DNA of 64,000 nucleotides from Candidatus Omnitrophota bacterium (GTDB lineage: Bacteria > Omnitrophota > Gorgyraeia > Zapsychrales > Fredricksoniimonadaceae): the NCBI GenBank assembly GCA_044225175.1, contig JBGAJA010000001.1, forward strand, positions 206,114-270,113, read 5' to 3'. The notes under the pieces were generated by a model. That model did not search any database. It was not told where the DNA came from and saw nothing but the letters and a program-made list of their open reading frames with translations. Both the position numbers and the translations under genes were made by a program. This document shows, piece after piece, positions 22,918 through 40,341 of the stretch. Position 1 is the first letter of the stretch. The number at the start of each line of letters is the position of its first letter.

Positions 22918-23377
22918 AGATAACTCAATTGTGCTTCTTCATGGTGTTTTTACCGAAGGAGCATTAGCCAAAATTAAACATAAAGGTGGAGCTCGTTTAG
23001 TCATATCAGAAGGGCGACCAACTCTTCGTGCGGGCGAGCACAATAGCCGATATTTCTTATCAAAGAAGCTTAAGCCTATTATTATCTGCGACAATATGGC
23101 AGGATCTTTATTTTTTAACGGCTATGTTAAAGAAGTAGTTTTAGCCTGCCAGTATGCTGACAAAACGGGGGCATTATGTGATATGGGTGCACTTATTTTA
23201 GCTGTACTTGCTAAGAAACATAAGGTTGCAATCCGTCTACTTGAAGGTGAACATAAGAAGCATTTCTTAGGTAATCCAAAAGATTTGTTATCGCTCAAAG
23301 GTTCTCCTACGGCATCAGCTAACACGCATGCTTATGCACCGTTAGTGGAATGGGTTCCGATTAAGTATTTTAAATAG
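22904..23377 (+). CDS. N-terminally truncated eIF-2B/MtnA-like paralog
   Basis: 157 aa that align to residues ~150–270 of the adjacent MtnA (VISEGRP..., IICDNMAGSLF...). The N-terminal domain and the C-terminus are missing. Overlaps mtnA by 14 nt in a different frame. Confidence 0.45.
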   Translation: MLEFKDNSIVLLHGVFTEGALAKIKHKGGARLVISEGRPTLRAGEHNSRYFLSKKLKPIIICDNMAGSLFFNGYVKEVVLACQYADKTGALCDMGALILAVLAKKHKVAIRLLEGEHKKHFLGNPKDLLSLKGSPTASANTHAYAPLVEWVPIKYFK

Positions 23378-24405
23378 TGGGGATTATGAAAGAACAACTC
23401 AAACAAGAAATCATTCGTATCGGTAAATTGCTCTGGGATAAGGGGCTGGTTTTTGGGTTTAATGGAAACATTTCTCAGCGCATCGATGTAAATACTGTAC
23501 TCATTACAGCGACAGGGACTTGCTTAGGATATTTGACTGAAAAAGATATCATCACAATGGATCTTGATGGAAAGGTTATTGGCGAAGGGAAAGCATCCAG
23601 TGAAAGATTGATGCATACAGCGATTTACAAATCCTTGCCTAATATCCAATGCGCGCTTCACACGCATACGACATATACCAATGGTTTTTTCTTAAGCAAT
23701 GATCGCTTCACACCTAAAACATTTGAAGCCCAGTTTTATTTAGGAGAAGTTAAGGCAATTGCTCAGTCAACACCTTCTGTGACAGAGCCTGCTCCTGTTG
23801 TGGAGGCGTTGAAAGCAAACAACATCGTTGTTCTTAAGAACCATGGTGTAGTTAGCGTCGGGGACAATCTTTTTAATGCTTTTGTTTTGATTCAGGAATT
23901 AGAAGAGCAAGTTAAGATGGATTTGGTTGATGTTCATTATAGAGGAGAATCATCAAAACCTCTACAAAGCAGCGTGCACTGCGGAATGGCTGAGGACTTA
24001 ATCAATAAGGGAGCTTCAGCGTCTACGAAGAAATACAAATTATTCTCTAATGAACAGATCGCCGAGATCGTCAAATTAGTCAACTCTGATCCTCAAATGC
24101 AAGAACTTGGAACCAAGACAGCCATGAATATGGACTTAGCCGTATGTCTTCAGGAAACAGGAGACACGCATAGTTTTAAATTTCAAAATGGCAAGATCAT
24201 CGAGACAGCTCATGATGCCAATGCCGAATTTTTAATTACAGCCAATGAATCAATTTGGCGTGCCGTGTTTAATCGTGAGATCGATCCATTTGTCGCAACG
24301 ACTCAAAAGAAAATGAGTCTACGAGGAGATTTTGCCCGTATCTCTAAATGGTATGCGCCATGCAGCCGCATCTTTCAATTATGGACTAACGTCCCGGTGG
24401 AATAG
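23377..24405 (+). CDS. mtnB: Methylthioribulose-1-phosphate dehydratase-like class II aldolase fused to a C-terminal SCP2-like domain
   Basis: N-terminal class II aldolase/adducin motifs (FGFNGNISQRI, HTHTTYTNGF). The C-terminal ~110 aa resemble a sterol-carrier-protein-2 fold. Confidence 0.6.
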   Translation: MGIMKEQLKQEIIRIGKLLWDKGLVFGFNGNISQRIDVNTVLITATGTCLGYLTEKDIITMDLDGKVIGEGKASSERLMHTAIYKSLPNIQCALHTHTTYTNGFFLSNDRFTPKTFEAQFYLGEVKAIAQSTPSVTEPAPVVEALKANNIVVLKNHGVVSVGDNLFNAFVLIQELEEQVKMDLVDVHYRGESSKPLQSSVHCGMAEDLINKGASASTKKYKLFSNEQIAEIVKLVNSDPQMQELGTKTAMNMDLAVCLQETGDTHSFKFQNGKIIETAHDANAEFLITANESIWRAVFNREIDPFVATTQKKMSLRGDFARISKWYAPCSRIFQLWTNVPVE

Positions 24406-24581
24406 AGTATGTTTAATAAATTTATTATCATGGTGATCAAATGGAGTTTAAGAAGCAGATAAGAGGATTAGAAGATATCTTTTATATTTCCGATAAAGGC
24501 GGGCCGACAAGAGAGTTTTTAATTTGGGATTCAAAGTCGAACAAGGCTTTTTATTTTGAACAATAATAATTTTAAAGAAAA

Positions 24582-26075
24582 ATGAGCACAACAACTGTAC
24601 AACAATTTGAATTATTACTCGAAGGCAAAATCAGTGCGCCTATGTCGGGGAAGTATTTTGACTGTGTGAATCCCTCCAATGGAGAGGTGTTTGCGCGTTT
24701 GGCTGATGCAGGAGAGTTGGATGCTGAAATTGCTATTCAAGCGGCTCGTTTGGCTTTTGACCACGGAAATTGGCCCAAGTTGTCTTTGCAAGAACGTGGG
24801 GCTTTTTTAGTCAAGATAGGACAAGCGATTCGTGAGCATGCCAAAGAATTGGCTGATTTGGAATGTGCCTCTACGGGAAAAACGATTAAACATGCAACAT
24901 TCATTGATGTGCCTACTGCAGCGGAAACATTTGAATATTTTGGTTCTTTGAAAGATGCCCATTTAGGCAAGGAAACACTTAAGCTGAGTGCTCCTTTAGA
25001 CTCTGTGATTGAACGGGAGCCCATGGGTGTGGTGTCTTTGATTATTCCTTGGAACTATCCTTTGATTATGGCAGCCTGGAAAATGGCTCCCGCGCTTTTG
25101 GCTGGAAACACAATCATTCTTAAACCTTCTTCCACAGCCTGTGTGGCAATCATGGCGCTTGCCAAGTTGATTGCTCAGGTGGGATTACCAAAGGGAGTCA
25201 TCAACATTATTTCTTCCACATCTGCTTCTGTGAAGGACATGATATCAAGTGCCCCGTCGGTGGATATGGTTTCTTTTACAGGCGGGACAGACACGGGAAG
25301 TAAGATTATGGCCCAAGCAGCCAAGAGCGTTAAGAAACTGGGGCTTGAATTAGGCGGCAAGTCAGCCAATATTGTCTTTGCAGACTGTGATATGGATGTC
25401 GCAATTGGGGGAGCTTTATCAGGTATCTTTATGAATCAAGGACAGATGTGTACGGCTGGTTCCAGGCTTCTAGTTGAAGATAAGATTTACAAAGCTTTTG
25501 TAGAGAAGTTGGTTGAACGTGCAAAGTCCTTGAAGATTGGTCCAGCGGATCAATTCGAGACTGAATTTGGTCCTTTGGTGAGTGTGGCGCATAGAGATGG
25601 CGTGTTAAAGATGATAGAGGCTGCCATTAAAGCAGGAAATAAGCTAGCCTGTGGGGGTCAAATACCGACGGGGAACATGGTAGGAGCTTATCTGGAGCCG
25701 ACGATATTTGTTGACGTCAAAAACAATGCTGCTATTGCCCAGGAAGAGGTTTTTGGCCCGGTACTATGTGTTATGCCTTTTACTAGTTCGGATGAAGCTA
25801 TTCATCTAGCTAACGATTCTAAGTATGGCTTAGCCGCCATGATTTGGACTAAAGATTTGGACAAAGCCAATGCTGTTGCCCGTAAGCTTCGTTGTGGAAC
25901 AGTGTGGATTAATACTTATGGGGCTTTCCCTAATGAAGCTCCTTTTGGTGGATGCAAACAAAGCGGTTTCGGTCGCGATTTAGGTAAGGATGGATTGCTC
26001 GAGTTTACACAAGTGAAACATATTGCCATTGATCAGACGCCTGGAGGGAAGTCTCTTGTGACTTCATGGTTTTGA
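24582..26075 (+). CDS. NAD(P)-dependent aldehyde dehydrogenase
   Basis: ELGGKSANIVF (catalytic Glu) and GQMCTAGSRLLV (catalytic Cys). 497 aa. Confidence 0.85.
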   Translation: MSTTTVQQFELLLEGKISAPMSGKYFDCVNPSNGEVFARLADAGELDAEIAIQAARLAFDHGNWPKLSLQERGAFLVKIGQAIREHAKELADLECASTGKTIKHATFIDVPTAAETFEYFGSLKDAHLGKETLKLSAPLDSVIEREPMGVVSLIIPWNYPLIMAAWKMAPALLAGNTIILKPSSTACVAIMALAKLIAQVGLPKGVINIISSTSASVKDMISSAPSVDMVSFTGGTDTGSKIMAQAAKSVKKLGLELGGKSANIVFADCDMDVAIGGALSGIFMNQGQMCTAGSRLLVEDKIYKAFVEKLVERAKSLKIGPADQFETEFGPLVSVAHRDGVLKMIEAAIKAGNKLACGGQIPTGNMVGAYLEPTIFVDVKNNAAIAQEEVFGPVLCVMPFTSSDEAIHLANDSKYGLAAMIWTKDLDKANAVARKLRCGTVWINTYGAFPNEAPFGGCKQSGFGRDLGKDGLLEFTQVKHIAIDQTPGGKSLVTSWF

Positions 26076-26146
26076 CTAAGCAAGTTTGAAGCAGTAACGA
26101 TTTACATAGTAACGACATTTATTAAATGGATCAAAAGGAGAACAGT

Positions 26147-27625
26147 ATGATTAAAAAAGTATTATTTCTAACCCCACCATTGAAAGCTTGGGATTCTCAT
26201 GGATTCCATAGAGCAGCAAATCAAATGCATGCTCAAGTTGCTGCCTATGTACGTCAGCAAAATAAGGTTGAAGTTGAAGCTCTTGATTGCCGTGCGCTTG
26301 ATATGGACTGGGATGCGATGATTGCCAAGATTGGTGAGAGCAAACCTGATATCGTCTTTGTAGGCGATCAACTGTTTTCAACCCTTGGAGCTGCTGTTAT
26401 CTGGTATTTCAACGAAGCATTGCGTTTGATTAAGGCTAAATATCCGCAAATTACAACTGTTGCTAGCGGTCTTTGGTATTCTGCTGATTATGATCGTCAA
26501 ATGAGATTGAATCCTGCAATCGATTACATCTTAATCGGTGAAGGTGAACTTACATTAGAAGAGTTGATTAACAATCTCAATAACAAAACAAAAGATATGC
26601 GTGAGATTCCAGGACTTGTACACCGTCCTGATGCCAATACAATTGTCGTCGGTCCTCATCGTGGATTAATTCCAGATTTGAATAAGCTTCCAATGCCAGC
26701 CTATGAATTATTCCCAATGGATAAATATGTAGGACATACCTATTGGAAACCTTTCGCAGAATTGATGACATCTCGTGGTTGTCCAGGCAAATGCCATTTT
26801 TGTTATGAATGGGCTTTGTATGATAGTCGTTCTGCAACTCAAGACTTCACATCCTGGAGAGGTTTATCAGGAAAACGTATTGTTGATGAATTAGATATCT
26901 TGGAACAAAAATATGGCGTCGTGACTGTTGTTATGCAAGACGATGCATTTAATAGTGATACTAAGGCGATGATCGAATTCTGTGAAGAAAAAATCAAGCG
27001 CGGAAACAAAATCGGCTGGGTGTGTCTAGGTCGTGCGGATCAATGGATTTCTCAACAAGAGATTCTTCCTTTGATGAGAAAAGCAGGTTTATTTATGGCC
27101 TTAACTGGTGTTGAAGTGGAAGATGATAAAACTTTATCAAAGACAGGTAAGGGTGTGACTGTTGATCAAATTAAGAAAACTATTCAATTATTGCGTGCTC
27201 AAAATATTGGAACAGTAGGTACGGTTCTAATTGGTTTGAAAGATGATACCGAAGAAAAGATCAAGAAGCGTTTACAAACCGCTGATGAAATTGATCCAGA
27301 CGTATTTGCTTTGGATTATTTGACCCCAGTTCCTAACTCACCAGATTGGCGTTATGGAATTCAAAAGAAATGGTTTGATCCTGAAACAATCAATTTGAAA
27401 GACTGGGATTTTCAACATCCAGTTATTCCAACGGATCATTTATCTGTTGAAGATGTGGGTCGTTTAGGGGCATGGTGTATGCGTGAGTATTATTCCAAGC
27501 CAGAGAGAATTCATCGCATCATGGAAAGCGATTATGATATTCGCGTCAAATTGTGCGTAAAAGATTTCATGAATAATATTTCCAAATGGGAAGCTAATTC
27601 AAGAGTAGAAGCTTCAGCTAGTTAA
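26147..27625 (+). CDS. B12-binding domain radical SAM protein
   Basis: N-terminal cobalamin-binding Rossmann region. Radical-SAM cluster motif CPGKCHFC (Cx3Cx2C). The start is set at the ATG with RBS aaaggag; the ORF tracker's ORF starts at 26126. Confidence 0.75.
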   Translation: MIKKVLFLTPPLKAWDSHGFHRAANQMHAQVAAYVRQQNKVEVEALDCRALDMDWDAMIAKIGESKPDIVFVGDQLFSTLGAAVIWYFNEALRLIKAKYPQITTVASGLWYSADYDRQMRLNPAIDYILIGEGELTLEELINNLNNKTKDMREIPGLVHRPDANTIVVGPHRGLIPDLNKLPMPAYELFPMDKYVGHTYWKPFAELMTSRGCPGKCHFCYEWALYDSRSATQDFTSWRGLSGKRIVDELDILEQKYGVVTVVMQDDAFNSDTKAMIEFCEEKIKRGNKIGWVCLGRADQWISQQEILPLMRKAGLFMALTGVEVEDDKTLSKTGKGVTVDQIKKTIQLLRAQNIGTVGTVLIGLKDDTEEKIKKRLQTADEIDPDVFALDYLTPVPNSPDWRYGIQKKWFDPETINLKDWDFQHPVIPTDHLSVEDVGRLGAWCMREYYSKPERIHRIMESDYDIRVKLCVKDFMNNISKWEANSRVEASAS

Positions 27626-27641
27626 TCAAGGAAGGTAGAAC

Positions 27642-27905
27642 ATGGTTAGTGTACAAACAACAATGGCGTGGGAACCAACAGCATTAGCAAAATTTAATAA
27701 AATGCTGAATTTGATTCCTATTTTCCATAGAGGTATTGCAAAGGAAGTCGTCAACATCAAAGCTGAGCAAAATGCTAGAGAGAGAAAGAGTTCTCAGGTT
27801 GAGGAGAAGGATATTGTGGAAGCTTTCACCTCAGAAGTTCCAAAGGCATTTTATAGCTTGATGATTCGAATTATGGATGAAGTGGGATTGGATTATAAAA
27901 AATGA
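27642..27905 (+). CDS. PCP_red-like small protein (resembles the protochlorophyllide reductase BchB C-terminal domain)
   Basis: WEPTALAKFNKMLNLIPIFHRGIAKEVV resembles the PCP_red domain start (W.E.A...L.KIP.F.R). Confidence 0.4.
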   Translation: MVSVQTTMAWEPTALAKFNKMLNLIPIFHRGIAKEVVNIKAEQNARERKSSQVEEKDIVEAFTSEVPKAFYSLMIRIMDEVGLDYKK

Positions 27906-28924
27906 AAATCGTTGTTATTGGAGCTGGTGCAATTGGTGGTTGTGTCGCCGCTTATTTAAAAAAAGCGGGCGAAGACGTTCTTTTGATTGGTCATGAGGAT
28001 CAGGTGGAGGTGATTAATCGAAAGGGGCTTACAATCACAGGTGTTCGTGGCACAGAAACGATTCGTATTCCTGCAGCTTTGAAAATGATGGAATATGCAG
28101 ACTTGGTTATTTTTGCGGTTAAGACCCAAGATATGGAAGAAGCTTATGCGGCTAATGCCGATTTTCTTGATAATGGCTTAGTGTTAACAAGTCAAAATGG
28201 TGTTCAAGCGGATAATCTTTTGAGCTCTCATTTTGATCAAACGCGTCAATTATCAAGCATCGTCATGTTTGGTGCAACATACATTAAGCCAGGTGAGATA
28301 GTCTTTAATTTTGAAGGAGACTGGATAGTTGGAAAACCTTTTTCACCAGTTGATCCAACAACTCATAAGGTCATTGAAGTTTTAAACAGAGCTTTTAAAG
28401 TTATACTCAGTACTGATATTACAGGGATGAAGTATTTAAAACTCTTTGTGAATTTCAATAATTGTATCCCAGCTTTAGTTGGCAAAAGCATGCAAGAAAC
28501 CTTTGCTGATATGGATTTGTGTCGATTGAGCATTTTGCTTCTTCAAGAAGGATTAAGTATTATTAAAGATGCAAAGATAGAGCTTACCTCTATGCCTAAC
28601 TTTGAAAAAGAAAAACTCTTTGGTTTAGCGGCATTACCAATCGAGCAATCAGCTGCCATTATGAATAAAACATTAACTACATTAAGCAAGGAACCGCTCT
28701 ACGGTTCGATCTTGCAAAGTATTATGCGTGGAAAAACGAGCGAGATCGATTTTATTAATGGGGAAGTGGTTCAATTAGCTAAACATTTGCATTTGAAAGC
28801 ACCATTGAATGAAAAGATTGTGGATATGGTGCATGAGGTTGAGCGAACAGGGAAATATTTTACGATTGATCAGGTTAAAAATGCATTTAACGTAGGGGCG
28901 GGTTCTAAACCCGCCCTAACATAG
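27902..28924 (+). CDS. Ketopantoate reductase (ApbA/PanE)-family oxidoreductase
   Basis: N-terminal MKIVVIGAGAIGG Rossmann motif. 340 aa with the ApbA C-terminal helical domain. Confidence 0.7.
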   Translation: MKIVVIGAGAIGGCVAAYLKKAGEDVLLIGHEDQVEVINRKGLTITGVRGTETIRIPAALKMMEYADLVIFAVKTQDMEEAYAANADFLDNGLVLTSQNGVQADNLLSSHFDQTRQLSSIVMFGATYIKPGEIVFNFEGDWIVGKPFSPVDPTTHKVIEVLNRAFKVILSTDITGMKYLKLFVNFNNCIPALVGKSMQETFADMDLCRLSILLLQEGLSIIKDAKIELTSMPNFEKEKLFGLAALPIEQSAAIMNKTLTTLSKEPLYGSILQSIMRGKTSEIDFINGEVVQLAKHLHLKAPLNEKIVDMVHEVERTGKYFTIDQVKNAFNVGAGSKPALT

Positions 28925-28950
28925 GGGCAGGTTTAGAACCTGCCCCTACG
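28892..28950. repeat. Two tandem, near-identical palindromic units straddling the stop codon (REP-like)
   Basis: Unit 1 is taggggcgggttctaaacccgccctaac (inside the CDS end). Unit 2 is taggggcaggtttagaacctgcccctac (12-bp perfect stem), immediately 3' of the stop. No T-tract. Confidence 0.55.
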
Positions 28951-28966
28951 ATATGGGGGAAATAAA

Positions 28967-29431
28967 ATGGCCAAAACCGCTGAACAATTAGGATTTAAAC
29001 GTACCTCTTGGATTCCTGATTATTGGAATGACACACAAATTGAAATTTTTAAAGGCATTGATGAGCATTGGGATCTTTTAATCAACAAGAAGGTTGATGA
29101 GTTTATCAAGTACATTCATCCTTCGATGATTGGATATGGTCATGAAAGTCCTGTCCCGGTTGATTATGGCTGGTTAAATAAATGGGTTGGGTTTTGGACG
29201 AAGAGTACCAATATTGCAATCGCTGAGCTTCGTCCAACACAGATTGTTTTGCACGGAGATATTGCGATCGTTCAATATCTAATTTTCACGGTAGAGGTTA
29301 ATGCCGAGGGTGGCAAACGTGTCATCCGTCGCTATACCATGACATGGAAGAAAACCAATCAACCAGGATATCCTGCTTGGCAAGTCATTGGAAGTCATAA
29401 TAATTTGATGGACGAGACCCTAAAAGGTTAA
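28967..29431 (+). CDS. NTF2-like (SnoaL/DUF4440-like) protein
   Basis: ~150 aa α+β pattern with conserved W/Y/H residues typical of the NTF2 superfamily. Fold assignment is tentative. Confidence 0.4.
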   Translation: MAKTAEQLGFKRTSWIPDYWNDTQIEIFKGIDEHWDLLINKKVDEFIKYIHPSMIGYGHESPVPVDYGWLNKWVGFWTKSTNIAIAELRPTQIVLHGDIAIVQYLIFTVEVNAEGGKRVIRRYTMTWKKTNQPGYPAWQVIGSHNNLMDETLKG

Positions 29432-29494
29432 AAAGGGTCGAAGCCCGCCGAAGCCAAACGTGAAAACATTTTGGCGAAGGTGGGGGAAAAATAT

Positions 29495-30772
29495 ATGGAG
29501 TATAGTATGAATAAAAAACGTCGTGTAGTAATTACTGGAGTTGGAATTGTGGCTCCCAATGGAATCGGCAATGACGCCTGTTTTTCAGCCATGATTAAAG
29601 GTGTATCTGCGATTCGTCGTGTCACCGAATTTGACGTCTCCATCTTCAATACAAAGATTGCGGCACAAGTTTTGGACTTTGACCCAATTGCTTTAGGTCT
29701 ATCTTTCGAAGAAGCAATTCGTATGGATCGCTATGTTCAGTTTGCCTGCGTGGCAGCACGAATGGCGCTGGAAGATTCGAAGTTAAGCTTGAATGCTGTG
29801 AATAAAGATCGCATTGGTGTTTCTTTGGCGAATGCGATTTGTGGAACCAAGTATATGGAAGAAGAGTTTGCGCTTGTGACTGATAGCGGGACAAAGCCTA
29901 TTAATCCTGCCATTGTTCGTCCTGATCTTTATGATGCAGCGATGTTTAATACTCCATCAAGTGAACTTTCTGCTAAGTATGGTTTAAGAGGTGTTTGCAA
30001 TACGATTTCGACGGGCTGTACAGCTGGAACAGATTCTGTTGGATTTGCAATGGAGACGATTCTAGATGGAGATGCAGACATTATGCTCTGTGGAGCAGCA
30101 GAAGCGCCCATTACTCCGATCACATTTGGTGCCTTTGATACGGTGAACGTTTTATCTGTCCATAACGATGAGCCAGCAAAGGCTTCTCGTCCATTTGATA
30201 ATAAGAGAAATGGCTTTGTGATTTCAGAAGGTGCGGGGGTTTTAGTTGCTGAAGAATTAGAACATGCCCTTAAACGCGGTGCTCGTATTTATTGTGAGAT
30301 CACAGGCTTTGGGACAACATGCAATGCCTATCACATGACAGATCTTCCTCCAGAAGGTGATGCTATGGCAGATAGCATTACACTTGCAATGGATGATGCT
30401 GGAATTAAGGCAGAGCAGATTGATTACATCTCAGCTCATGGTTCTTCAACTCGACAGAATGATACCTTTGAAACAAGTGCTTACAAAATGGCATTAGGGC
30501 CCCAAGCGTATAAGATTCCGATCTCTTCTGTTAAATCCATGATTGGACATCCCCTAGCAGGTGCAAATGGGATCGAATTAGCTCTCAGTTCATTAATGTT
30601 TGAGCGTAATATTTTACCGCCAACGATCAATCAGGAAGAAAAAGATCCTACATGCGATTTGAATTACATTCCTAATAAGGCGATGGAAAAGAAGGTGGAT
30701 TGTATTTTAAAAACATCCAGCGGGTTCTCCGGAATTCATTCAGCTATGGTGCTGCAACGATATAAGGGGTAA
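29495..30772 (+). CDS. Beta-ketoacyl synthase (KS, catalytically intact)
   Basis: Active-site Cys in ISTGCTAGTDS, His in YISAHGSST and MIGHPLAGAN. The ORF tracker's ORF begins at a TTG at 29471. I use the ATG at 29495, which is preceded by aaggtggggg. Confidence 0.8.
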   Translation: MEYSMNKKRRVVITGVGIVAPNGIGNDACFSAMIKGVSAIRRVTEFDVSIFNTKIAAQVLDFDPIALGLSFEEAIRMDRYVQFACVAARMALEDSKLSLNAVNKDRIGVSLANAICGTKYMEEEFALVTDSGTKPINPAIVRPDLYDAAMFNTPSSELSAKYGLRGVCNTISTGCTAGTDSVGFAMETILDGDADIMLCGAAEAPITPITFGAFDTVNVLSVHNDEPAKASRPFDNKRNGFVISEGAGVLVAEELEHALKRGARIYCEITGFGTTCNAYHMTDLPPEGDAMADSITLAMDDAGIKAEQIDYISAHGSSTRQNDTFETSAYKMALGPQAYKIPISSVKSMIGHPLAGANGIELALSSLMFERNILPPTINQEEKDPTCDLNYIPNKAMEKKVDCILKTSSGFSGIHSAMVLQRYKG

Positions 30773-30776
30773 AACT

Positions 30777-31046
30777 ATGTGTTGTCCTACAACTCAACAA
30801 ACAGTTTCATTTTTTAAATCTGTTGAACCTTTGTTTTGGTTGTTTCAAATTCTTATTGTTTCAAACTTGGTTTTTCCAAAAATCTTCTTTGCAACTCAGT
30901 TGAACTGGCTTAATAAGCTTTTAAAATACCAGGGCTTTGAGGCGCATATTACCTTTAGTGAAAAGGCATATAAGATTTGGTATAGAGATTTATGTGTTTT
31001 GTTTTTTTTAAATTTGATTGTTATTGGACTTATACATTTAATTTAG
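30777..31046 (+). CDS. Small hydrophobic ORF between the two KS genes
   Basis: 89 aa with two hydrophobic segments. RBS-like aagggg sits upstream. No homology recognised. Confidence 0.3.
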   Translation: MCCPTTQQTVSFFKSVEPLFWLFQILIVSNLVFPKIFFATQLNWLNKLLKYQGFEAHITFSEKAYKIWYRDLCVLFFLNLIVIGLIHLI

Positions 31047-31057
31047 GGGCTTAATTA

Positions 31058-32290
31058 ATGGAAAAAATTGCAATTACAGGTTTAGGAGTCATTTCTCCTT
31101 CAGGGATAGATAAGCGTCAGTTTTGGGCTAATATCAAAGCAGGACGTTCAACGGTTGAGAAGATTGAGCGTTTTGATGCATCTTTATATCCTTCACGCAT
31201 TGCTGGTCACGTCAAAGAGTTGGATGCATACAGCAATGTTTCATCTCGGTTACTTAAAAAGATTGATTTGTTTTCTCATATGGCACTTGTTGCTTCCGAA
31301 ATGTGTTTAGCGGATGCCAAGATCAATCTTTCAGAAGAAGATTTGAAACGTGTGGGAATCTTTATGGGCAATGCTTTGGGTGGATGGTTGTATGCTGAAA
31401 CGGAGCTTCGGGATATGTATCTTGAAGGAAGAGAAGGTGTTAGTCCTTTCATGGCTTCCGCCTGGTTTCCAGCAGCTCCTCAAGGACAGATTTCTATTCA
31501 TTATGGAATCAAAGGGTACAGTAAGACTATTGTTGCTGATCGAGCGAGCTCTTTGATGGCCATTGCCTATGCAGCTAAGACAATTAATCGTGGTAAATGT
31601 GATTTTATCTTGGCAGGTGGTATGGAAGCGCCTGTTACCCCTTATGCATTACTATGTTGTGTCACGTCGGGGACATTGTCTTTGAATAACAATAATCCAC
31701 ACAGTGCTTACCGACCTTTTGATAAGAATCGTGATGGATTGGCCATTGCTGAAGGTGCTGGTGTTTTGACATTAGAACCTCAATCACGTGTTGCTAAACG
31801 TGGCGCTCATGTGTATGCCAATATTATTGGTTATGGAACAACGACAGATGCAACCAATCGCATTGATCCATCTGGCGATGGTCATCAATTAGCGCGTGCA
31901 ATTAAAATAGCTTTGGATGACGCAAAGCTTGCTCCATCAGACATTGATTACATTTGTGCTGATGGCGCAGGAACAATCCTTGGAGATATTACAGAGACCA
32001 AGGCAATCAAAGAGGCGTTTGGTCCCGTTGCTTATAAGATTCCTGTGTCAGCACCTAAGTCTATCTTTGGAAATATGCTTGGAGCCTGTGGAGCGTTAGA
32101 TGTGATTACAACCCTCTTGGCTATGGAACACAGTATGGTGCCGCCAACAATTAATTATCAAACACCAGATCCAGAATGTGATTTGGATTACGTGCCTAAT
32201 AAAGCTCAAGAGAAGACTATCAAAAATGCCATGATCATTAATCGTGGTCGTGGTGGGATTAATTGCGTTTTAATTTTACAGAAAGGTTAA
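31058..32290 (+). CDS. KS-like partner lacking all three catalytic residues (chain-length-factor-like)
   Basis: Aligned to the upstream KS, the Cys position reads IVADRASSL (C→R), the first His reads YICADGAGT (H→D), and the second His reads IFGNMLGA (H→N). Confidence 0.75.
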   Translation: MEKIAITGLGVISPSGIDKRQFWANIKAGRSTVEKIERFDASLYPSRIAGHVKELDAYSNVSSRLLKKIDLFSHMALVASEMCLADAKINLSEEDLKRVGIFMGNALGGWLYAETELRDMYLEGREGVSPFMASAWFPAAPQGQISIHYGIKGYSKTIVADRASSLMAIAYAAKTINRGKCDFILAGGMEAPVTPYALLCCVTSGTLSLNNNNPHSAYRPFDKNRDGLAIAEGAGVLTLEPQSRVAKRGAHVYANIIGYGTTTDATNRIDPSGDGHQLARAIKIALDDAKLAPSDIDYICADGAGTILGDITETKAIKEAFGPVAYKIPVSAPKSIFGNMLGACGALDVITTLLAMEHSMVPPTINYQTPDPECDLDYVPNKAQEKTIKNAMIINRGRGGINCVLILQKG

Positions 32291-32292
32291 TT

Positions 32293-32535
32293 ATGGAAAC
32301 ACAAACAGATTTAGAAAATAAAGTTAAGGGGATTTTAAAGAAGGTCTTGGATGTCAAGGACAGTGAAATTATTCCAGGCGCCAAACTAGATGAGTCGCTC
32401 GGAATTGATTCTACAGAAATGGTTGAGATTTCTGTTTCTATAAAGAAGGAATTGGGAGTTGCTTTAAAAGATAATGAGCTAAAGAAGACTCATTCTTTGA
32501 ATGAAATCGTTAGTATTTTAAAGTCTAAGGGCTAA
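32293..32535 (+). CDS. Acyl carrier protein
   Basis: 80 aa with LGIDSTEMVE, the phosphopantetheine-attachment Ser motif. Start trimmed to the ATG after the KS-like stop. Confidence 0.75.
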   Translation: METQTDLENKVKGILKKVLDVKDSEIIPGAKLDESLGIDSTEMVEISVSIKKELGVALKDNELKKTHSLNEIVSILKSKG

Positions 32536-32624
32536 GGGAGTATTAAGTGGACTTAATTAATTTTGATAAAAACAGGAATTTAGACGAGTTGGAGTTAGCG
32601 GGGGGAATAGAAAGACGGGGGTCT

Positions 32625-32984
32625 ATGATGTCCCGATCTACCAAGCTTAGACAAATACCTGTAAAGAAATTAACTACGGAAGAATTACGTCTGATGATTG
32701 TGCAAAATAGAAGTTTGAGATTTTTGGTTCCACTTGCAATTGAACGTTTGCTAGATGATTCAATGCTCAAAGGAGATCAATACGCAGGCGATTTGACAAA
32801 TGCAGTATTAACGATTGAGAAAAAGTTTTGGGCAGGTGATTTGAATGGCTACGTTCCTATGCTTAATTCTATTATTGAAAAAGCACAAAAAATAGCAGAA
32901 GAGAATCCAAAGGATTATGAAGGTTTCTTTCAGCACACCTCTCATGCGATTAAACTTTTTAAAGCAAACACGAGTGAGCTATGA
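32625..32984 (+). CDS. Hypothetical protein
   Basis: ORF with plausible start MMSRSTKL preceded by gacggggg. No domain recognised. Confidence 0.4.
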   Translation: MMSRSTKLRQIPVKKLTTEELRLMIVQNRSLRFLVPLAIERLLDDSMLKGDQYAGDLTNAVLTIEKKFWAGDLNGYVPMLNSIIEKAQKIAEENPKDYEGFFQHTSHAIKLFKANTSEL

Positions 32985-33352
32985 AGGGTCGAATCCAAGA
33001 TCTCAATTTAGTTGAACTCAAAGACATCAAGATTAAAGATGTTGTTCTTAATGAATTTAATATTGAGATTGTTTTCGAAGGTGATCACTCTCTTGTCATT
33101 GAAGAATATTGGGAATATGTGGATGAAAAAGAACAAGTGATCGATAGGCAGTTAAGCTCTAAGTTCAGAAAAGAATTTAAGTTGAAAGAAGTGGTGGGTA
33201 GCCAATTTATCAAATTGAGTAAAGTGTTAGAAACGTTTTATTTCGGTTTTAGTAATAAGAACTCTTTAAAAGTTTCTGCTCCCGATTTTGAATTTATGAA
33301 TTTAGATCATTATAAAGCCTTTGGTGATGATAGTGCGCCGTCAGGAGTTTAA
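32981..33352 (+). CDS. Hypothetical protein
   Basis: 123 aa, overlapping the upstream ORF by 4 bp. No domain recognised. Confidence 0.4.
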   Translation: MKGRIQDLNLVELKDIKIKDVVLNEFNIEIVFEGDHSLVIEEYWEYVDEKEQVIDRQLSSKFRKEFKLKEVVGSQFIKLSKVLETFYFGFSNKNSLKVSAPDFEFMNLDHYKAFGDDSAPSGV

Positions 33353-33354
33353 AT

Positions 33355-34158
33355 ATGACAATAATTGATTTAAGTCTTCCTATTGATGATAGCTTGATTG
33401 AAACGCATGCGGCTACAATTGAGCGTATCACTCATAAGGCTGGGGTTGAACATTTTAATTGGGTAGTCATGAAAAATCAGCCGGGTGGGCAGGAGCGTTT
33501 TGATAAGGGTGAACGTGTGGCCACTGCGCAAGAGATTCCTGATGGCGAGATGTTGTCATTAGAAATTGTGAATTCTTCTGTCCACATGGGTTCTCATGTG
33601 GATGCTCCTTTTCATTATGGAAGCACATGTGAGGGGAAACCTGCCAAGCAAATCATGGATGTTCCGCTCGAATGGTGTTATGGTCCAGGTGTTGTTTTAG
33701 ATTTCACTCATTTAAAATTTCCTGATGCAATCGGCCGCAAAGAAGTTGAAGGGGCTCTCACCAAAATTAATTATAAGCTTAAGCCAATGGACATAGTTCT
33801 TCTCTATACAGGAGGTGACAAGCTTCTTGGTACAGATGATTACGTAAATAAATATGTCGGCTGTACGCCTGATGCGATTGAGTTTTTGCTTGATCAAGGA
33901 ATTAAGATGATTGGCGTAGATACAATCGGTTTAGATCGTCCATGTTTTTTAATGTTCAAAGAATTTTTAAGTACTAAAGACAAGAGTAAGATTTGGCCGT
34001 GCCATTTCTTAGGTCGCAGACGTGAATATTGTCATATGGAACGTTTAGGAAATTTAGGTGCGATTCCTAAGCCTTTTGGATTTACAGTTTCATGTTTGCC
34101 TGTGAAGGTTCGTAATGCTGGTGCAGGTTGGAGTCGAGTGGTGGCTTTAATCAACTAA
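33355..34158 (+). CDS. Cyclase-family protein (PF04199, kynurenine formamidase / polyketide cyclase type)
   Basis: Metal-binding motif HMGSHVDAPFHY (HxGTHxDxPxH), the family signature. Confidence 0.7.
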   Translation: MTIIDLSLPIDDSLIETHAATIERITHKAGVEHFNWVVMKNQPGGQERFDKGERVATAQEIPDGEMLSLEIVNSSVHMGSHVDAPFHYGSTCEGKPAKQIMDVPLEWCYGPGVVLDFTHLKFPDAIGRKEVEGALTKINYKLKPMDIVLLYTGGDKLLGTDDYVNKYVGCTPDAIEFLLDQGIKMIGVDTIGLDRPCFLMFKEFLSTKDKSKIWPCHFLGRRREYCHMERLGNLGAIPKPFGFTVSCLPVKVRNAGAGWSRVVALIN

Positions 34159-34169
34159 GGGAGAAAATT

Positions 34170-34751
34170 ATGAGACATCTGATTTTAATTTTGGCAGTCG
34201 TTTTGGTTTCAGGGAATGTCTGGGCTGAGAATAACGAATTTAAAGGTTATAGAGTAGATCGAATAGAAAAAGTTAAGGCGCACCGTCTTGAACAAAAAGC
34301 TGAGAACAAAGACTTTCGTTCCACTCTTAAAGATAAAAGCAAAGAAGAGCGAATGGAGGCTGTTCATTCTCATCGTTTGAACCAACATACAGAAAATATT
34401 GAAAAGCATAAAATTATGCATGAACAACAGATGGCTAGATTAAAAGAAGAATTAGCTAAGAAAGAAAATCTCACTCAAGCACAAAAAGATGAAATTCTTA
34501 ACAAGCGTGAAGCTCAATTTCAAGAAAAGTTACAACATCATCAACAGCAATTCTCTGAGAATAAAGCTTTTGCAGAGAAAATATCTGCTGAAGACATGAA
34601 TTCTCAAGAACGCAAGGATGCTTGGAAGGCTCATATGGAGGAACAAAAGTCGGAAAATAAAACCTTTCGCCAAAACGCCATGTTAGAAATGAAAGCCAAG
34701 CGTCAGCAAATGCATAATGATATGAAAGCTACCAGAAAAGATGTGAAGTAA
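34170..34751 (+). CDS. Secreted K/E/H-rich coiled-coil protein with repeated HRL.Q motifs
   Basis: Signal peptide MRHLILILAVVLVSGNVWA, RBS aagggag. Low-complexity charged repeats with many His. Confidence 0.5.
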   Translation: MRHLILILAVVLVSGNVWAENNEFKGYRVDRIEKVKAHRLEQKAENKDFRSTLKDKSKEERMEAVHSHRLNQHTENIEKHKIMHEQQMARLKEELAKKENLTQAQKDEILNKREAQFQEKLQHHQQQFSENKAFAEKISAEDMNSQERKDAWKAHMEEQKSENKTFRQNAMLEMKAKRQQMHNDMKATRKDVK

Positions 34752-34767
34752 TATTAAAGGAGGAGTT

Positions 34768-35217
34768 ATGGGTCATACTGTTAATTCAATAGTCATTAAT
34801 GCGCCATACGAGTTGGTTTTTGATGTTTCTAATCATATTGAACGTTGGACTGAGTTGTTTGGTAAGGAATACGCAAGTGCAGATGTTTTAGAGCGTAAAG
34901 GAAATGAGATCACATTTCGTTTAACTGATGAAGATAAGAAATCTTGGGTATCTAAGCGTTGGTTATACAAAGATTTGAAGTTTGCTTATGCGCAGCGTCA
35001 TGATCCTTTGTTTCCTTTTATTTATATGAAGATTGTTTGGTTGTATCAAGAAACGCCAGAAGGAATCAAGATGACATGGATCCAAGATTTTGAAATGGAT
35101 CCTAAGTTTACAAAATTTACGGCCGAGCAAATTGAAGGGTTTGTGAATGAACATTCACAGCATAACATGAAAATTTTTAAGAAGGTGATTGAAGCAGAAG
35201 CCCATGCTGTTAAATAA
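34768..35217 (+). CDS. SRPBCC-superfamily protein (polyketide cyclase/dehydrase-like, TcmN ARO/CYC type)
   Basis: ~150 aa with pattern SIVINAPYELVFDVSNHIERW typical of Polyketide_cyc2/SRPBCC. Confidence 0.6.
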   Translation: MGHTVNSIVINAPYELVFDVSNHIERWTELFGKEYASADVLERKGNEITFRLTDEDKKSWVSKRWLYKDLKFAYAQRHDPLFPFIYMKIVWLYQETPEGIKMTWIQDFEMDPKFTKFTAEQIEGFVNEHSQHNMKIFKKVIEAEAHAVK

Positions 35218-36346
35218 CAATCGACGTTTGATTCTGTTTTATTTTTGTTGTGCCAATATTTTAATCTCGTTTAACATTTCAGCTCTGATTGCAACTGTTC
35301 CGGCCATCGCGCGCTCTTTGGATGTGGATGCAGGAGATGTGGCAGGTATTGTAACTTACTACATGATTCCTTATGGATTATGTGCGCTGGGATTTGTACC
35401 TTTAGCTTGCAGGTTTTCGATTAAATCGCTGTTGATCTTTTCTGCTAGTCTTTTTTCCTTAGGCAATTGGATATGCTTATGGTCAGATTCTTTAACAGTG
35501 ATCATGGCGGGGCGAATTCTATCGGGAATTGCGGCAGCTGCCGTTACTCCTTTAGGTTTAATTACCTTAGGTAAGATTTTTCCAACGCATTTGCGGGGGA
35601 GAGTCATTGGAATATTCTTTAGTTCAGCATTCTTTGGTTCGATCTTTGGCTTAATTCTTAGTGCCGTTGCTCATTGGCATTGGCAATTTATTATTCCCTT
35701 TTGGCTGGGGCTGATCTTAGCTATTGGTTTATTTTTTTGTCCCAAGGATGGAATGGAGGCGCATTCGGTTAAAGTTGATTATTTTGATGCTTTTCGTATC
35801 CCAGGATTACGTAGATTGCTGGTTCTCATATTCTTTATGAGTTTGTTCTTTCATGGTGTGGTTAAGTGGTATGGGGTTTATTTGGATAAGATCTATAGTT
35901 ACAGCCAAGTAACTATTAGTGGTTTGATAATTCTGACAGCTTTTGCTTCAATGTTGGGTCAATTAATTGGAGGGATCATTACAGATAAGCTTGGTCGTTT
36001 GTACTCTTGTTATATAGGAACTGGATTATTAGGTTTGTGTGTTGTGGCGTTGTATTGGCAATATTCTTTTTTGATTTTAAGTATTGTGTTTTGTTTAATT
36101 TCAGTTGGTTGGACGATAGCACATAACGGTATATCAACAGTGCTTACGGATTTCTCAGATAAGTTTCGCATGGAACTTGCAGCGCTTAATTCAGCGGTTA
36201 GATTTTTTAGTGGAGGTTTGGGGTTTTGGCTGAGCGGAAATTTTGTACAGCGTAATTTTGGTCTTACATTTTTAATGATTGGAATATTGATGTTGACCCA
36301 AATGTTGTTTATTTCGAAAATTGTTTCACAACGAAAGGAAAGTTAA
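35204..36346 (+). CDS. MFS transporter
   Basis: About 12 predicted transmembrane helices. Overlaps the previous gene end. Confidence 0.65.
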   Translation: MLLNNNRRLILFYFCCANILISFNISALIATVPAIARSLDVDAGDVAGIVTYYMIPYGLCALGFVPLACRFSIKSLLIFSASLFSLGNWICLWSDSLTVIMAGRILSGIAAAAVTPLGLITLGKIFPTHLRGRVIGIFFSSAFFGSIFGLILSAVAHWHWQFIIPFWLGLILAIGLFFCPKDGMEAHSVKVDYFDAFRIPGLRRLLVLIFFMSLFFHGVVKWYGVYLDKIYSYSQVTISGLIILTAFASMLGQLIGGIITDKLGRLYSCYIGTGLLGLCVVALYWQYSFLILSIVFCLISVGWTIAHNGISTVLTDFSDKFRMELAALNSAVRFFSGGLGFWLSGNFVQRNFGLTFLMIGILMLTQMLFISKIVSQRKES

Positions 36347-37131
36347 TGTCACATGTATCTGTTGATTTGAAGGGTAAGGTTGCTGTGATCACTGGTGCAA
36401 GCCGTGGGATAGGTAAGGCCATCGCAACGCGTTTGGCTGAGCATGGAGCTAGCCTGGTCTTAGCGGCGCGTTCACAGGGGCCTTTGGATGCGACGGTGAA
36501 TGAGTTAAAGGATAAGTATGGGGTTCAAGCGATTGGTGTTTCTTGTGATGTGGCTAAATTAGATCAACTTCAGAATTTGGTTGCTAAAGCTAAAGCGCAA
36601 TTTAAACAAATTGACATCTTAGTGAATGTTGCTGGTGTATCTAGTCAATATCCTTTTCATGAACAACCGATCGAAGACTTTGAAATGTTAGCTCATATCA
36701 ACTATTTGGGTTATGTGCGTTTGATTCGCTTGATTATTCCTGATATGGTGGCTCGTCGTGATGGTCATTTGATCAATGTGGTTTCTGGTTCAACCTTAGT
36801 CGACCCAATTCCTCGTGGATTTTTAACCTATAGTTCCTTGAAGATGGGTTTGCGTGCATTTCTTAAAGGTCTCTTTTGGGAAATGCGTGAACACAATATT
36901 AAAGTAACATCTTTGCTTCCTGGAGTTGTAGCCTCCGATTTGACTGACCATCTTAAGGATGTGGCGGTGACTCAGCGTGACCGTCTTATGGATCCAGTTG
37001 CGGTTGCAGATATGGTCAGCTTTGCTTTGTCAGTTCCAGCTAATGCTTGCCCGCTTGAATTGGCTGTAATCAATCAGTTGACGACTTGGACTAAGCCGAT
37101 TATTGATTATAAGCAAACCCAAGCAAAGTAG
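36346..37131 (+). CDS. Short-chain dehydrogenase/reductase (SDR, ketoreductase-like)
   Basis: VAVITGASRGIGKAIA cofactor-binding motif. 261 aa. Confidence 0.8.
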   Translation: MSHVSVDLKGKVAVITGASRGIGKAIATRLAEHGASLVLAARSQGPLDATVNELKDKYGVQAIGVSCDVAKLDQLQNLVAKAKAQFKQIDILVNVAGVSSQYPFHEQPIEDFEMLAHINYLGYVRLIRLIIPDMVARRDGHLINVVSGSTLVDPIPRGFLTYSSLKMGLRAFLKGLFWEMREHNIKVTSLLPGVVASDLTDHLKDVAVTQRDRLMDPVAVADMVSFALSVPANACPLELAVINQLTTWTKPIIDYKQTQAK

Positions 37132-37165
37132 GGCAGAACAACTTGATCTTGTAAAGGAGTGATGC

Positions 37166-37399
37166 ATGGATAAAACCGTTGCTACATTTCAAAAAAACAA
37201 GTTTCAACAAGTTCATGTAGGGATTAGAGAGTTTAAAGGAAATGATTTGGTGGATATTCGAGTGTTTACACAGCTGCAGGGATCGAATCATATGGTGGCC
37301 ACAGCTAAAGGAATTAGTATTAATGTCCATCTGGTGCCAGAATTAAGAAAAGCTTTGGAAGAAGTAGATCGTCTGTTAAGAGAAGAGAAAATGTTATGA
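37166..37399 (+). CDS. PC4-like (transcriptional coactivator p15 fold) ssDNA-binding protein
   Basis: VGIREFKGNDLVDIRVF...AKGISINV matches the PC4 C-terminal domain consensus. Confidence 0.6.
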   Translation: MDKTVATFQKNKFQQVHVGIREFKGNDLVDIRVFTQLQGSNHMVATAKGISINVHLVPELRKALEEVDRLLREEKML

Positions 37400-38304
37400 C
37401 CATTGATTCACACAGTCATTTTATGCCACCAGCTGTTGCTCAAAAGACCGCGTTCTTTAAAGAGCATTGGTCAGATGTTGATAAACATCTTAAGTTGATG
37501 GATGATCATCATGTTAATCAATCGCTGCTTTTATATCCAACCAGCGACGCGCATATCAATATGGGGGGATGGAAGAATCTTTGCGATGTTTATAATCGTG
37601 AGCTTTCTCAAATTGTTCATAAATATCCCAATCGTTTTATTGGAGCTGGAATTTTACCTATTGATTCTCCTGATGACATTCTCAAAGAATTAAAACGCAT
37701 TGAAGACTTGGGATTAAAAGTAATTTCATTGGCATCCAGTTATGATGGAATTTATTTGGATGATCCAAAATTCTTTCAGATTTATGAGTTCGCCAAGTCA
37801 AAGAAAATGCCCATCCATGTACATCCTCAAATCATGAACCCTATTGGGTTTGAACGCGTGCAAGACCCATTATTAAGTCCTGTTTTAGAGTATGTATTCG
37901 ATGTTTCTATGTGTATTGGAAAGATGATGATGTCAGGTGTCTTTTTAAAATACCATGACGTTAATTTCATTTTTGCTCATTATGGAGGAGTGCTTCCAAT
38001 TGTAAAGGAGCGCTTCGATGCTACGTACGCAATGCTCAGACGACGAAACTTTGTAAAAGACATTACTAAATTTCCAAGCGAATTTTTTTCGAATTTATAT
38101 TTTGATACCAGTGGTTCAAAATCCAAGGCCTCATTATTGGCTGCATTAGAGTTAACGGACTGCCACCATATATTGTGGGGGTCTGATTTTCCAGCGAATC
38201 AAAATTTCAAAGATTCCCTCGGTGTAATCAGTAATACCGTGCTTTCTGTGCAAGAACGTAACTCATTATTTGGCTATAATTTTGCACGCCTCATGGAAAA
38301 ATAA
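37396..38304 (+). CDS. Amidohydrolase-2 family metal-dependent hydrolase/decarboxylase (ACMSD-like)
   Basis: N-terminal IDSHSHFMPP metal-binding His pair. TIM-barrel amidohydrolase_2 pattern. Confidence 0.65.
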   Translation: MTIDSHSHFMPPAVAQKTAFFKEHWSDVDKHLKLMDDHHVNQSLLLYPTSDAHINMGGWKNLCDVYNRELSQIVHKYPNRFIGAGILPIDSPDDILKELKRIEDLGLKVISLASSYDGIYLDDPKFFQIYEFAKSKKMPIHVHPQIMNPIGFERVQDPLLSPVLEYVFDVSMCIGKMMMSGVFLKYHDVNFIFAHYGGVLPIVKERFDATYAMLRRRNFVKDITKFPSEFFSNLYFDTSGSKSKASLLAALELTDCHHILWGSDFPANQNFKDSLGVISNTVLSVQERNSLFGYNFARLMEK

Positions 38305-38445: not shown

Positions 38446-39989
<1,544 letters not shown>

Positions 39990-40180
39990 TATTCTATTAC
40001 AGGATAGAAACGAAAATTTCATCGTCAACGAAATGTTTAAGCATAATAAGTAAATCAAGATCTTCTCTTTGAAGTTCTTGGCTTTCAAAAATTTTAGAAC
40101 TGCTCGTTGAAACAATGAGCGATCATTGTTTCAACGGGTTTGTTTTCCAAGTGGTCAATCCACTGGCTAAGCCGTATAAC

Positions 40181-40254
40181 GGGCCCGTAGCTCAGATGGT
40201 TAGAGCGCGTCCCTGATAAGGACGAGGTCAGTGGTTCGATCCCCCTCGGGCCCA
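40181..40254 (+). tRNA. tRNA-Ile (anticodon GAU)
   Basis: Cloverleaf GGGCCCGTAGCTCAG...CTGATAA... in the 16S–23S spacer. CCA is not encoded. One U·C mismatch in the T-stem. Confidence 0.85.
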
Positions 40255-40264
40255 TTTATTTCGA

Positions 40265-40341
40265 GGGGCCGTAGCTCAGTTTGGTAGAGCGCCTGCTTTG
40301 CAAGCAGGAAGTCAAGAGTTCGATCCTCTTCGGCTCCACCA
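40265..40341 (+). tRNA. tRNA-Ala (anticodon UGC)
   Basis: GGGGCCGTAGCTCAG...TTTGCAA... with the G3:U70 identity pair. CCA is encoded. Confidence 0.9.

Follow-up and report, generated by a model that had tools for sequence, protein, structure and literature searches.

The stretch of DNA analyzed here, referred to as the window, comprises 64,000 nucleotides of a Candidatus Omnitrophota bacterium (contig JBGAJA010000001.1, positions 206,114 to 270,113). It includes, on its forward (+) strand, an open reading frame (ORF) at positions 31058–32290, which encodes 410 amino acids with both ketoacyl-synthase Pfam domains, and which stands downstream from the gene of an active ketosynthase (KS). All three catalytic residues of the KS are replaced in this ORF, which raises the question of what kind of protein it encodes, and what role is played by the arginine that occupies the site of the nucleophile. 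The ORF probably represents a chain-length factor (CLF, also known as KS-beta) from a polyketide synthase (PKS) of type II, in which the former active site is dead and the arginine, Arg162, forms part of a structural charge network.

The replaced residues and the family of the protein

An earlier note on this DNA had described the replacement of Cys by Arg and of the two His by Asp and Asn, and all three changes are borne out by the alignments and the structural model. Arg162 (codon CGA, 31541–31543) falls where the KS has its nucleophile, Cys, and the actinorhodin CLF has Gln161, while Asp302 (GAT, 31961–31963) and Asn339 (AAT, 32072–32074) stand at the positions of the first and second catalytic His, respectively. 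Lys334 is still present in the alignment with the adjacent KS, to which the ORF is 36% identical. The register was taken from pairwise MAFFT, from multiple alignments, and from HMMER local alignments to FabF and the actinorhodin CLF, and these three independent approaches agree on the columns of Arg162, Asp302, and Asn339. Neither a Cys nor a Gln falls at position 162 under any of these realignments or in the secondary structure of the model, and the Arg is kept at the Cys position throughout. In the AlphaFold2 monomer model (pLDDT 93, pTM 0.94), residue 162 lies at the N-terminus of the helix 161–177, which is the nucleophile site of the KS fold. The model resembles FabF (TM 0.96; Foldseek against the PDB), although Foldseek is unable to tell a CLF from FabF. 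The adjacent KS is intact, with Cys183, His323, and His360.

The further claim that this triple replacement is an undescribed state of KS-beta does not hold. The actinorhodin CLF, which is identical in sequence to PDB 1TQY chain B (as the actinorhodin KS is to chain A), itself carries Gln, Asp, and Arg at the triad positions, in the motifs VAEQAGG, FADGAGV, and TGRLYSG, and the pattern Q/D/K/R (the Lys334 position included) is found in all 119 of the actinobacterial CLF clusters sampled, which were retrieved with the actinorhodin CLF. Given the presence of Asp in 1TQY chain B and in these 119 clusters, the change from His to Asp (ADGAG) is the normal state of a CLF, and the loss of the second His is likewise normal among the actinorhodin-type CLFs. 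The Arg at the Cys/Gln position is the sole departure of the ORF from a textbook CLF. The interpretation offered in the earlier note thus survives in part, in that a KS-fold partner without the triad is likely to be structural or templating, like any CLF, whereas its premise of an unusual triple replacement falls.

The view that Gln is canonical at this position is also only partly sustained, given that it describes the actinobacterial clusters, but not the CLFs of the Ktedonobacteraceae, which have Ala, the AntE protein of the Photorhabdus anthraquinone PKS, which has Asp (PMC6638757), or the Arg-type clades. The existence of these Ala, Asp, and Arg types means that Gln is not universal in the CLF family. 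No paper discussing an Arg at the Cys/Gln position of a CLF was found in the open-access text searched, and the residues of the CLF pocket are unmentioned in a preprint on type II PKS evolution and in the aggregicyclin paper. The solved chains aligned at this position in a short-segment search of the PDB all have Cys or Gln, and none has Arg, with AntE, Iga12, and 9S5H being matched without residue-level alignment. The KS-CLF pairs of Candidatus Omnitrophica were already included in a 2023 catalogue (PMC10132072).

The placement of the ORF in the family is supported by a neighbor-joining tree, a distance method, based on 39 sequences and 410 columns, with 300 bootstraps. In this tree, all the CLF types (R, K, I/T, A, and Q at position 162), including the actinorhodin CLF, form a single clade with 100% bootstrap support, and all the KS-alpha sequences, including the actinorhodin KS and PcyE, form another, also with 100%. 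Three motifs, AWF(Y/P)A, the ADG at the first His, and an xRGxGG that replaces the GFGG loop of the KS, are found in all the CLFs and are absent from the KS and FabF; in the ORF, they read AWFPAA (134–139), ADGAG (301–305), and RGRGGIN (396–402). Given its membership of the CLF clade and these CLF-only motifs, the ORF is a true CLF, despite matches in raw sequence and in fold that are better for FabF than for the actinorhodin CLF. Within the CLF clade, the Gln and Ala types group together (98%), while the Arg types are recovered as a separate monophyletic group with just 14% support; the Gln and Ala types are placed among the Arg types in the topology, in a branching order that the support does not settle.

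Comparison with the known systems points in the same direction. The actinorhodin CLF (ActI-ORF2), with 34% identity, shares with the ORF the KS fold, the position beside a KS-alpha, the clade, Lys334, the replacement of the first His by Asp, and the three motifs AWF, ADG, and xRGxGG, and differs in having Gln161 in place of Arg162, and Arg rather than Asn at the second His. The Ktedonobacteraceae-type CLFs are also non-actinobacterial and devoid of Gln, and share the framework of Asp302, Lys334, and Arg396, but their residues at 162 and 339 are Ala and Arg, respectively, and they group with the actinobacterial Gln type. AntE (PDB 6SMO/6SMP), which belongs to an “ancestral” clade of C16/C18 aromatic PKSs (PMC6638757, PMC7693217), is another non-actinobacterial CLF without the Gln, although it has Asp at 162, is shorter (371 amino acids), and matches the ORF more weakly. 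A further parallel is found in amxFabFmut of the anammox ladderane cluster, a dead FabF paralogue encoded beside radical S-adenosylmethionine (SAM) genes in a bacterium of the PVC (Planctomycetes–Verrucomicrobia–Chlamydiae) group, which pairs with an active protein in a heterodimer and has Val or Thr at the Cys position (bioRxiv 10.64898/2026.05.19.726425). The amxFabFmut gene precedes that of its active KS, and its surroundings include FabZ but no aromatic cyclases, whereas the ORF has Arg, is downstream of its KS, and belongs to a cluster without FabZ.

Other groups of KS-like proteins fit less well. The KSQ signature combines Gln with both catalytic His, in contrast with the Arg/Asp/Asn of the ORF, while a FabF (KAS II) assignment is countered by the absence of the triad and by a TIGR03150 score of 406 bits against a cutoff of 493.75. 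Partners of the AmcG/cispentacin type are truncated, lack the KS motifs, and are paired with an AmcF-type KS, whereas a full-length KS fold is found here, and the score against the AmcF model, 164 bits, falls well short of its cutoff of 325.

Spread and conservation of the arginine-type proteins

The survey of homologs proposed in the earlier note found the replaced residues to be fixed. The R/D/N combination is present in 119 of the 120 best homolog clusters (78–100% identity), many of which are named Candidatus Omnitrophica or Omnitrophota. A scan of one genome per species recovered the CLF gene from approximately 65 Omnitrophota metagenome-assembled genomes (MAGs), at 71–91% identity, and further copies, at 60–65% identity, from MAGs of the Dehalococcoidales and of Syntrophaceae/Syntrophobacter. 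Positions 162, 302, 334, and 339 were then read in 85 CLF genes from 86 loci, that is, the loci of the genome scan together with six outgroup loci. The Omnitrophota and their close relatives have R/D/K/N (70 of the 85 genes), while R/D/K/H was found in six genes, mainly from the Dehalococcoidales, but also from Syntrophobacter and Archangium, K/D/K/H in four genes of the Dehalococcoidales, R/E/K/H in two metagenome outgroups, and R/H/K/H in one other; the two remaining genes are truncated copies. The KS that adjoins the CLF reads C/H/K/H in all 75 full-length cases.

The loss of all three triad residues might suggest a pseudogene, that is, a decaying duplicate of the adjacent KS in which the catalytic residues have drifted. 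This explanation is refuted by the conservation of the residues and by the ratio of non-synonymous to synonymous substitution rates (dN/dS), which is approximately 0.05–0.07 in comparison with the two closest orthologs, with the synonymous sites being close to saturation. The ORF is, in addition, full-length in approximately 80 species-level genomes, with 16S identities to the window as low as 82%, R/D/K/N is fixed, and the predicted fold is confident, which leaves a decaying copy with practically no likelihood. Given the fixed residues and the low dN/dS, the CLF gene is functional rather than decaying, and is under strong purifying selection.

In one natural variant of the CLF, P0069 (82% identity), position 162 is Cys and position 339 is His, while Asp302 is retained. 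It was found on two independent metagenome contigs (L088, 6001–7233; L089, 841–2073), in the same cluster context, and both its Cys162 and its His339 are a single nucleotide step from the respective Arg and Asn codons. The existence of this Cys/Asp/His variant in the same context indicates that Arg162 is not absolutely required.

The Arg at 162 extends well beyond the Omnitrophota. A search of representatives at 50% identity was dominated by multi-KS megasynthases, with approximately 30 single- or double-domain matches being usable, and these, together with a profile search, show that Arg recurs at 162 in proteins that are just 40–60% identical to the CLF of the window. The carriers include metagenome sequences, the CLF portion of a naturally fused KS-CLF protein, and the myxobacteria Archangium violaceum, Vitiosangium, Corallococcus, Sorangium, Polyangium, and Pyxidicoccus fallax. 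The Arg/Lys-type group spans the Omnitrophota, the Dehalococcoidales, Syntrophia-like MAGs, and the myxobacteria, with Lys replacing Arg in a few CLFs, including some of those of the Dehalococcoidales; elsewhere, a small group has Ile or Thr at this position. Wherever the context is readable, the Arg-type CLF gene follows an intact KS, usually with an acyl carrier protein (ACP), always with a PF04199 cyclase, an SRPBCC cyclase, or both, and sometimes with a ketoreductase (KR). In the Omnitrophota, the Dehalococcoidales, Archangium, Pyxidicoccus, and metagenome contigs, this company consists of an ACP, PF04199 and SRPBCC cyclases, and usually a KR.

The pyxidicycline synthase of P. fallax provides a case in which the product is known. 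The gene order of the P. fallax locus (L087) is that published for pcyA-H/pcyJ-L, with genes for a hydrolase, a cyclase, a didomain cyclase, a KR, a KS, a CLF, an ACP, and a phosphopantetheinyl transferase (PPTase), and, on the opposite strand, genes for an AMP-ligase/cyclase fusion and a muconolactone isomerase. The CLF of this locus (P0332) has Arg at the Cys/Gln position, in the motif VCGERASGH, and is apparently PcyF, as judged by gene order and species name rather than by a match of accessions. The pcy synthase is productive in both native and heterologous hosts, with nonaketide-derived products (PMC5982219), which means that an Arg-type CLF is compatible with a working minimal PKS. PcyF shares with the CLF of the window the Arg at the Cys/Gln position and the Asp at the first His, and its locus has the same make-up of KR, KS, CLF, ACP, PF04199 cyclase, and SRPBCC cyclase. 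The two proteins are only approximately 40% identical, however, and in PcyF the residues that correspond to Lys334 and Asn339 are Arg and His, while the pcy cluster serves the secondary metabolism of a myxobacterium, includes a PPTase and the tailoring genes pcyJ-L, and is not conserved across a phylum. Since a large branch of the CLFs outside the actinobacteria regularly has Arg at the Cys/Gln position, the ORF is a variant of a known protein.

The charged pocket and its possible roles

Six pocket positions (161, 162, 302, 334, 339, and 396) were read across 325 CLFs. The signature of the ORF, D-R-D-K-N-R, is that of 155 sequences, from the window and the Omnitrophota, while 117 sequences have E-Q-D-K-R-R, the actinorhodin type, and 18 have E-A-D-K-R-R, the Ktedonobacteraceae type. 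Position 339, which has His in the outgroup Arg-type CLFs, has Arg in the Gln and Ala types. Arg or Lys at 162 is paired with Asn, His, or another residue other than Arg at 339 in 183 sequences, and Gln, Ala, or Ser at 162 is paired with Arg at 339 in 138, while none of the 325 CLFs combines Arg or Lys at 162 with Arg at 339. An Ile or Thr at 162 is accompanied by Ala at 302, with the loss of Asp302. Added up over the six positions, the formal charges come to a net +1 in 317 of the 325 CLFs. This pattern of an Arg at either 162 or 339 suggests a buried and compensated network of ions in a dead pocket.

The CLF and the active KS beside it are most likely the two halves of a heterodimer, in which KS-alpha would perform all the condensations on malonyl-ACP bound to the ACP encoded downstream, and would probably also be responsible for the priming decarboxylation. 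The CLF would supply half of the tunnel at the dimer interface, and would thus set the length of the chain; the gate positions F109, T112, and F116 of the actinorhodin CLF correspond to W110, A113, and L117 in the window, and the equivalent residues of PcyF are W/T/L. The chain would then be reduced by a ketoreductase of the short-chain dehydrogenase/reductase (SDR) family and closed by the TcmN-type and OxyN-type cyclases, to yield an aromatic polyketide. In the pocket of the CLF itself, Asp161, Arg162, Asp302, Lys334, and Arg396 probably constitute a buried, charge-balanced network that fills the dead site. Arg162 would take over the role of the Arg found at the second His position of the Gln and Ala types, with a single Arg, donated from either 162 or 339, being paired with Asp302.

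A number of points weigh against this interpretation. The sequence scores 318 bits against FabF and only 243 against the actinorhodin CLF, and the cutoff of the NCBIfam FabF subfamily NF005589 is exceeded, if barely (393 vs. 387 bits). The covariation of positions 162 and 339 is derived from just three or four independent clades, and is suggestive rather than statistical for this reason. Arg-type CLFs that lack Asp302 also occur (R/H, R/N, R/A, and R/S). The contact between Arg162 and Asp302, and the closure of the pocket, are predicted from sequence rather than observed in coordinates, and the heterodimer, the tunnel, the ion pairing, and the aromatic product of the Omnitrophota system are inferred from its genes.

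One alternative is that the Arg has retained a chemical role, as the Arg-based counterpart of the Gln of the proposed “chain initiation factor”. In this case, Arg162, Lys334, and Asn339 (His339 in the relatives) would together form a binding site for the malonyl carboxylate, and the PKS would be primed by their decarboxylation of malonyl-ACP. The positive charge at 162 is conserved, including by the exchange of Arg for Lys, Lys334 is retained in nearly all the Arg-type CLFs, and both His and Asn, found at 339, are decarboxylation residues in KS families, as in the Cys-His-Asn triad of the priming KSs (PMC12664062). A link to decarboxylation has also been drawn for the Gln of the canonical CLF (Bisang 1999, cited in PMC3691225). 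This would, however, place Asp161 and Asp302 in competition with a carboxylate substrate for the Arg beside them. The Phe of the GFGG loop is a gating residue of the KS with a role in the oxyanion hole, and in all the CLFs it is replaced by Arg or Ser. The anammox heterodimer still decarboxylates malonyl-ACP with the Val/Thr partner amxFabFmut (bioRxiv 10.64898/2026.05.19.726425), which makes KS-alpha the likely decarboxylase, and the P0069 variant indicates that the Arg is not strictly needed. The acidic neighbors, the lost Phe, and the anammox case rank a catalytic Arg below a structural one, and render it unlikely.

A second alternative concerns the pathway rather than the residue, and is more doubtful still. 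The pair may not belong to an aromatic PKS at all, but may be a fatty-acid-type heterodimer of a KS and a CLF-like protein, similar to that of the anammox ladderanes, which produces a phylum-specific lipid together with a B12-dependent radical SAM enzyme. FabF is, in fact, the best match of the CLF in both sequence and fold, the gene of a B12-binding radical SAM enzyme is present in every locus read, and the cluster is retained phylum-wide beside the rRNA operon, under a constraint similar to that on housekeeping genes; “ladderane”-type calls of biosynthetic gene clusters have also been reported for Omnitrophota MAGs (PMC9902471). The cluster nevertheless contains no genes of the FabZ or FabI type, and two families of aromatic type II PKS cyclases are conserved at every locus. 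In the tree, KS-alpha stands with PcyE and the actinorhodin KS, and the CLF of the window is placed with the actinorhodin CLF, each with the full bootstrap support described above, and the radical SAM enzyme scores 79.5 bits against a cutoff of 360 for the ladderane radical SAM model. The cyclases, the lack of FabZ and FabI, the placement of the KS, and the low radical SAM score make a fatty-acid-type pathway improbable, and a structural Arg in the CLF of an aromatic PKS is preferred.

The gene cluster beside the rRNA operon

The CLF belongs to a PKS cluster (21170–38304) that stands directly upstream of a 16S-23S-5S rRNA operon (38446–43605), in a window with a G+C content of approximately 38–40%, and every gene around the CLF is on the + strand. 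The cluster opens with a conserved block (21170–26075) that encodes a PNP_UDP_1 phosphorylase, an MtnA-like isomerase, a 157-amino-acid ORF, a class II aldolase, and an aldehyde dehydrogenase. These genes may represent a set for the salvage of deoxyadenosine and methylthioadenosine, similar to the “DHAP (dihydroxyacetone phosphate) shunt”; their NCBIfam scores are all under the equivalog cutoffs. The conserved gene of the B12-binding radical SAM enzyme (26126–27625) follows, and then a DUF2621-like ORF (27642–27905), an ApbA/PanE-like NAD(P) oxidoreductase (27902–28924), which is conserved in the clusters of both the Omnitrophota and the Dehalococcoidales, and a small DUF4440/SnoaL-like protein (28967–29431), upstream of the KS, which is not found in all the loci.

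The gene of the active KS-alpha (29471–30772; 433 amino acids), which also retains Lys355, may have its true start at the ATG at 29507, and ends 285 bp upstream of the start of the CLF. This spacer is filled by an ORF of 89 amino acids with two hydrophobic stretches (30777–31046), which is kept at 30–54% identity in at least 11 Omnitrophota loci, in which the flanking proteins are 80–93% identical. The length of the spacer varies from -8 to approximately 970 bp among the Omnitrophota, and the KS and CLF genes overlap by 4 bp in several of the Dehalococcoidales and Syntrophobacter outgroup loci. The possibility that the spacer is a repeat or a known RNA was rejected, given that it matches no repeat of the window, has weak similarity to five other spacers, and has no match in Rfam.

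The CLF gene is followed directly by that of the ACP (32293–32535; 80 amino acids), in which Ser40, in the motif GIDST, is the site of phosphopantetheine attachment. Next are the PF04199 cyclase of the OxyN/DpsY type (33355–34158), which is found beside the minimal PKS in all the related loci, the SRPBCC polyketide aromatase/cyclase of the TcmN type (34768–35217), a major facilitator superfamily (MFS) transporter (35189–36346), and the conserved SDR ketoreductase (36346–37131). An Amidohydrolase_2 family protein (37396–38304) is the conserved end of the cluster, which then gives way to the rRNA operon.

Some of the intervening ORFs are much less widespread. A homolog of the CdiI_3-like immunity proteins and an ORF of 123 amino acids, located between the ACP and the cyclase (32547–33352), have matches among just a handful of the closest relatives (L007, L008, L010, L011, and L067), and a Lys/Glu-rich ORF of 207 amino acids with a hydrophobic N-terminus, between the two cyclase genes (34128–34751), has a counterpart in none of the 86 loci compared. 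Two other ORFs of the window, with 1601 (14691–19496) and 359 amino acids (12371–13450), have no Pfam match at E ≤ 1e-5.

The order of the genes is shared by the Omnitrophota from the phosphorylase, the MtnA-like protein, the 157-amino-acid ORF, the aldolase, the aldehyde dehydrogenase, the B12-radical SAM enzyme, and the DUF2621-like, ApbA-like, and SnoaL-like proteins, to the KS, CLF, ACP, PF04199 cyclase, SRPBCC cyclase, MFS transporter, SDR, and Amidohydrolase_2. The Omnitrophota and the Dehalococcoidales have in common a core that starts at the ApbA-like reductase and runs as far as the amidohydrolase. A relative with 60% identity has nearly the full set of genes, except that the aldehyde dehydrogenase is replaced by an aldehyde:ferredoxin oxidoreductase. 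A salvage-like block with an aldehyde:ferredoxin oxidoreductase is seen alongside the B12-radical SAM and PKS genes in locus L001 (17180–21242).

The cluster adjoins the rRNA operon in at least 30 Omnitrophota loci, in which the 16S sequence is 82–96% identical to that of the window. This adjacency is old and vertically kept, which is unusual for a secondary-metabolite cluster. Its long vertical conservation raises the possibility of a core function, and hints at a product of core importance to this uncultivated phylum. No paper on this cluster was found in the open-access text searched.

These observations can be combined, very tentatively, in a broader scenario, which is unlikely to hold as a whole. 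The Arg would be ancestral in the CLF pocket, and the Gln would have arisen late, in the lineage of the actinobacteria and the Ktedonobacteraceae, enabled by the movement of the Arg to the second His position. The cluster fixed beside the rRNA operon of Omnitrophota whose 16S sequences differ by up to 18%, with its B12-radical SAM enzyme and salvage-like set, would make a core aromatic polyketide rather than an optional antibiotic. If so, the product might be, for example, a quinone-like redox carrier or a membrane pigment. The Arg-type CLFs add one more piece of evidence that the Gln is a feature of a lineage and not a requirement, and they are relevant to a long-standing dispute about which of the two subunits, CLF or KS-alpha, primes the chain. 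As an oddity in itself, the Arg is ordinary; the conservation of an Omnitrophota-wide type II PKS beside the rRNA operon, which points to a product of core importance, and the idea of a swap between 162 and 339 are the more notable aspects of this locus.

Some of the database records of these clusters appear to be mislabeled. Many MAGs with the Omnitrophota-type cluster (L007, L013, L015, and others) are titled “uncultured Planctomycetales bacterium”, which looks like a systematic error in one series of assemblies. In a contig labeled “uncultured archaeon” (L078; CAWHLK010000043.1), the KS (89%), the cyclase (93%), and the SRPBCC protein (91%) are close to those of the window, while the CLF is only 64% identical and the ORF of the KS is truncated; the copy may have been rearranged or misassembled, and the archaeal label looks wrong. 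One version of the Omnitrophota cluster (L088) also contains a gene of the MamF_MmsF family of magnetosome membrane proteins (657–1007), which separates the gene of the aldehyde dehydrogenase from that of the radical SAM enzyme.

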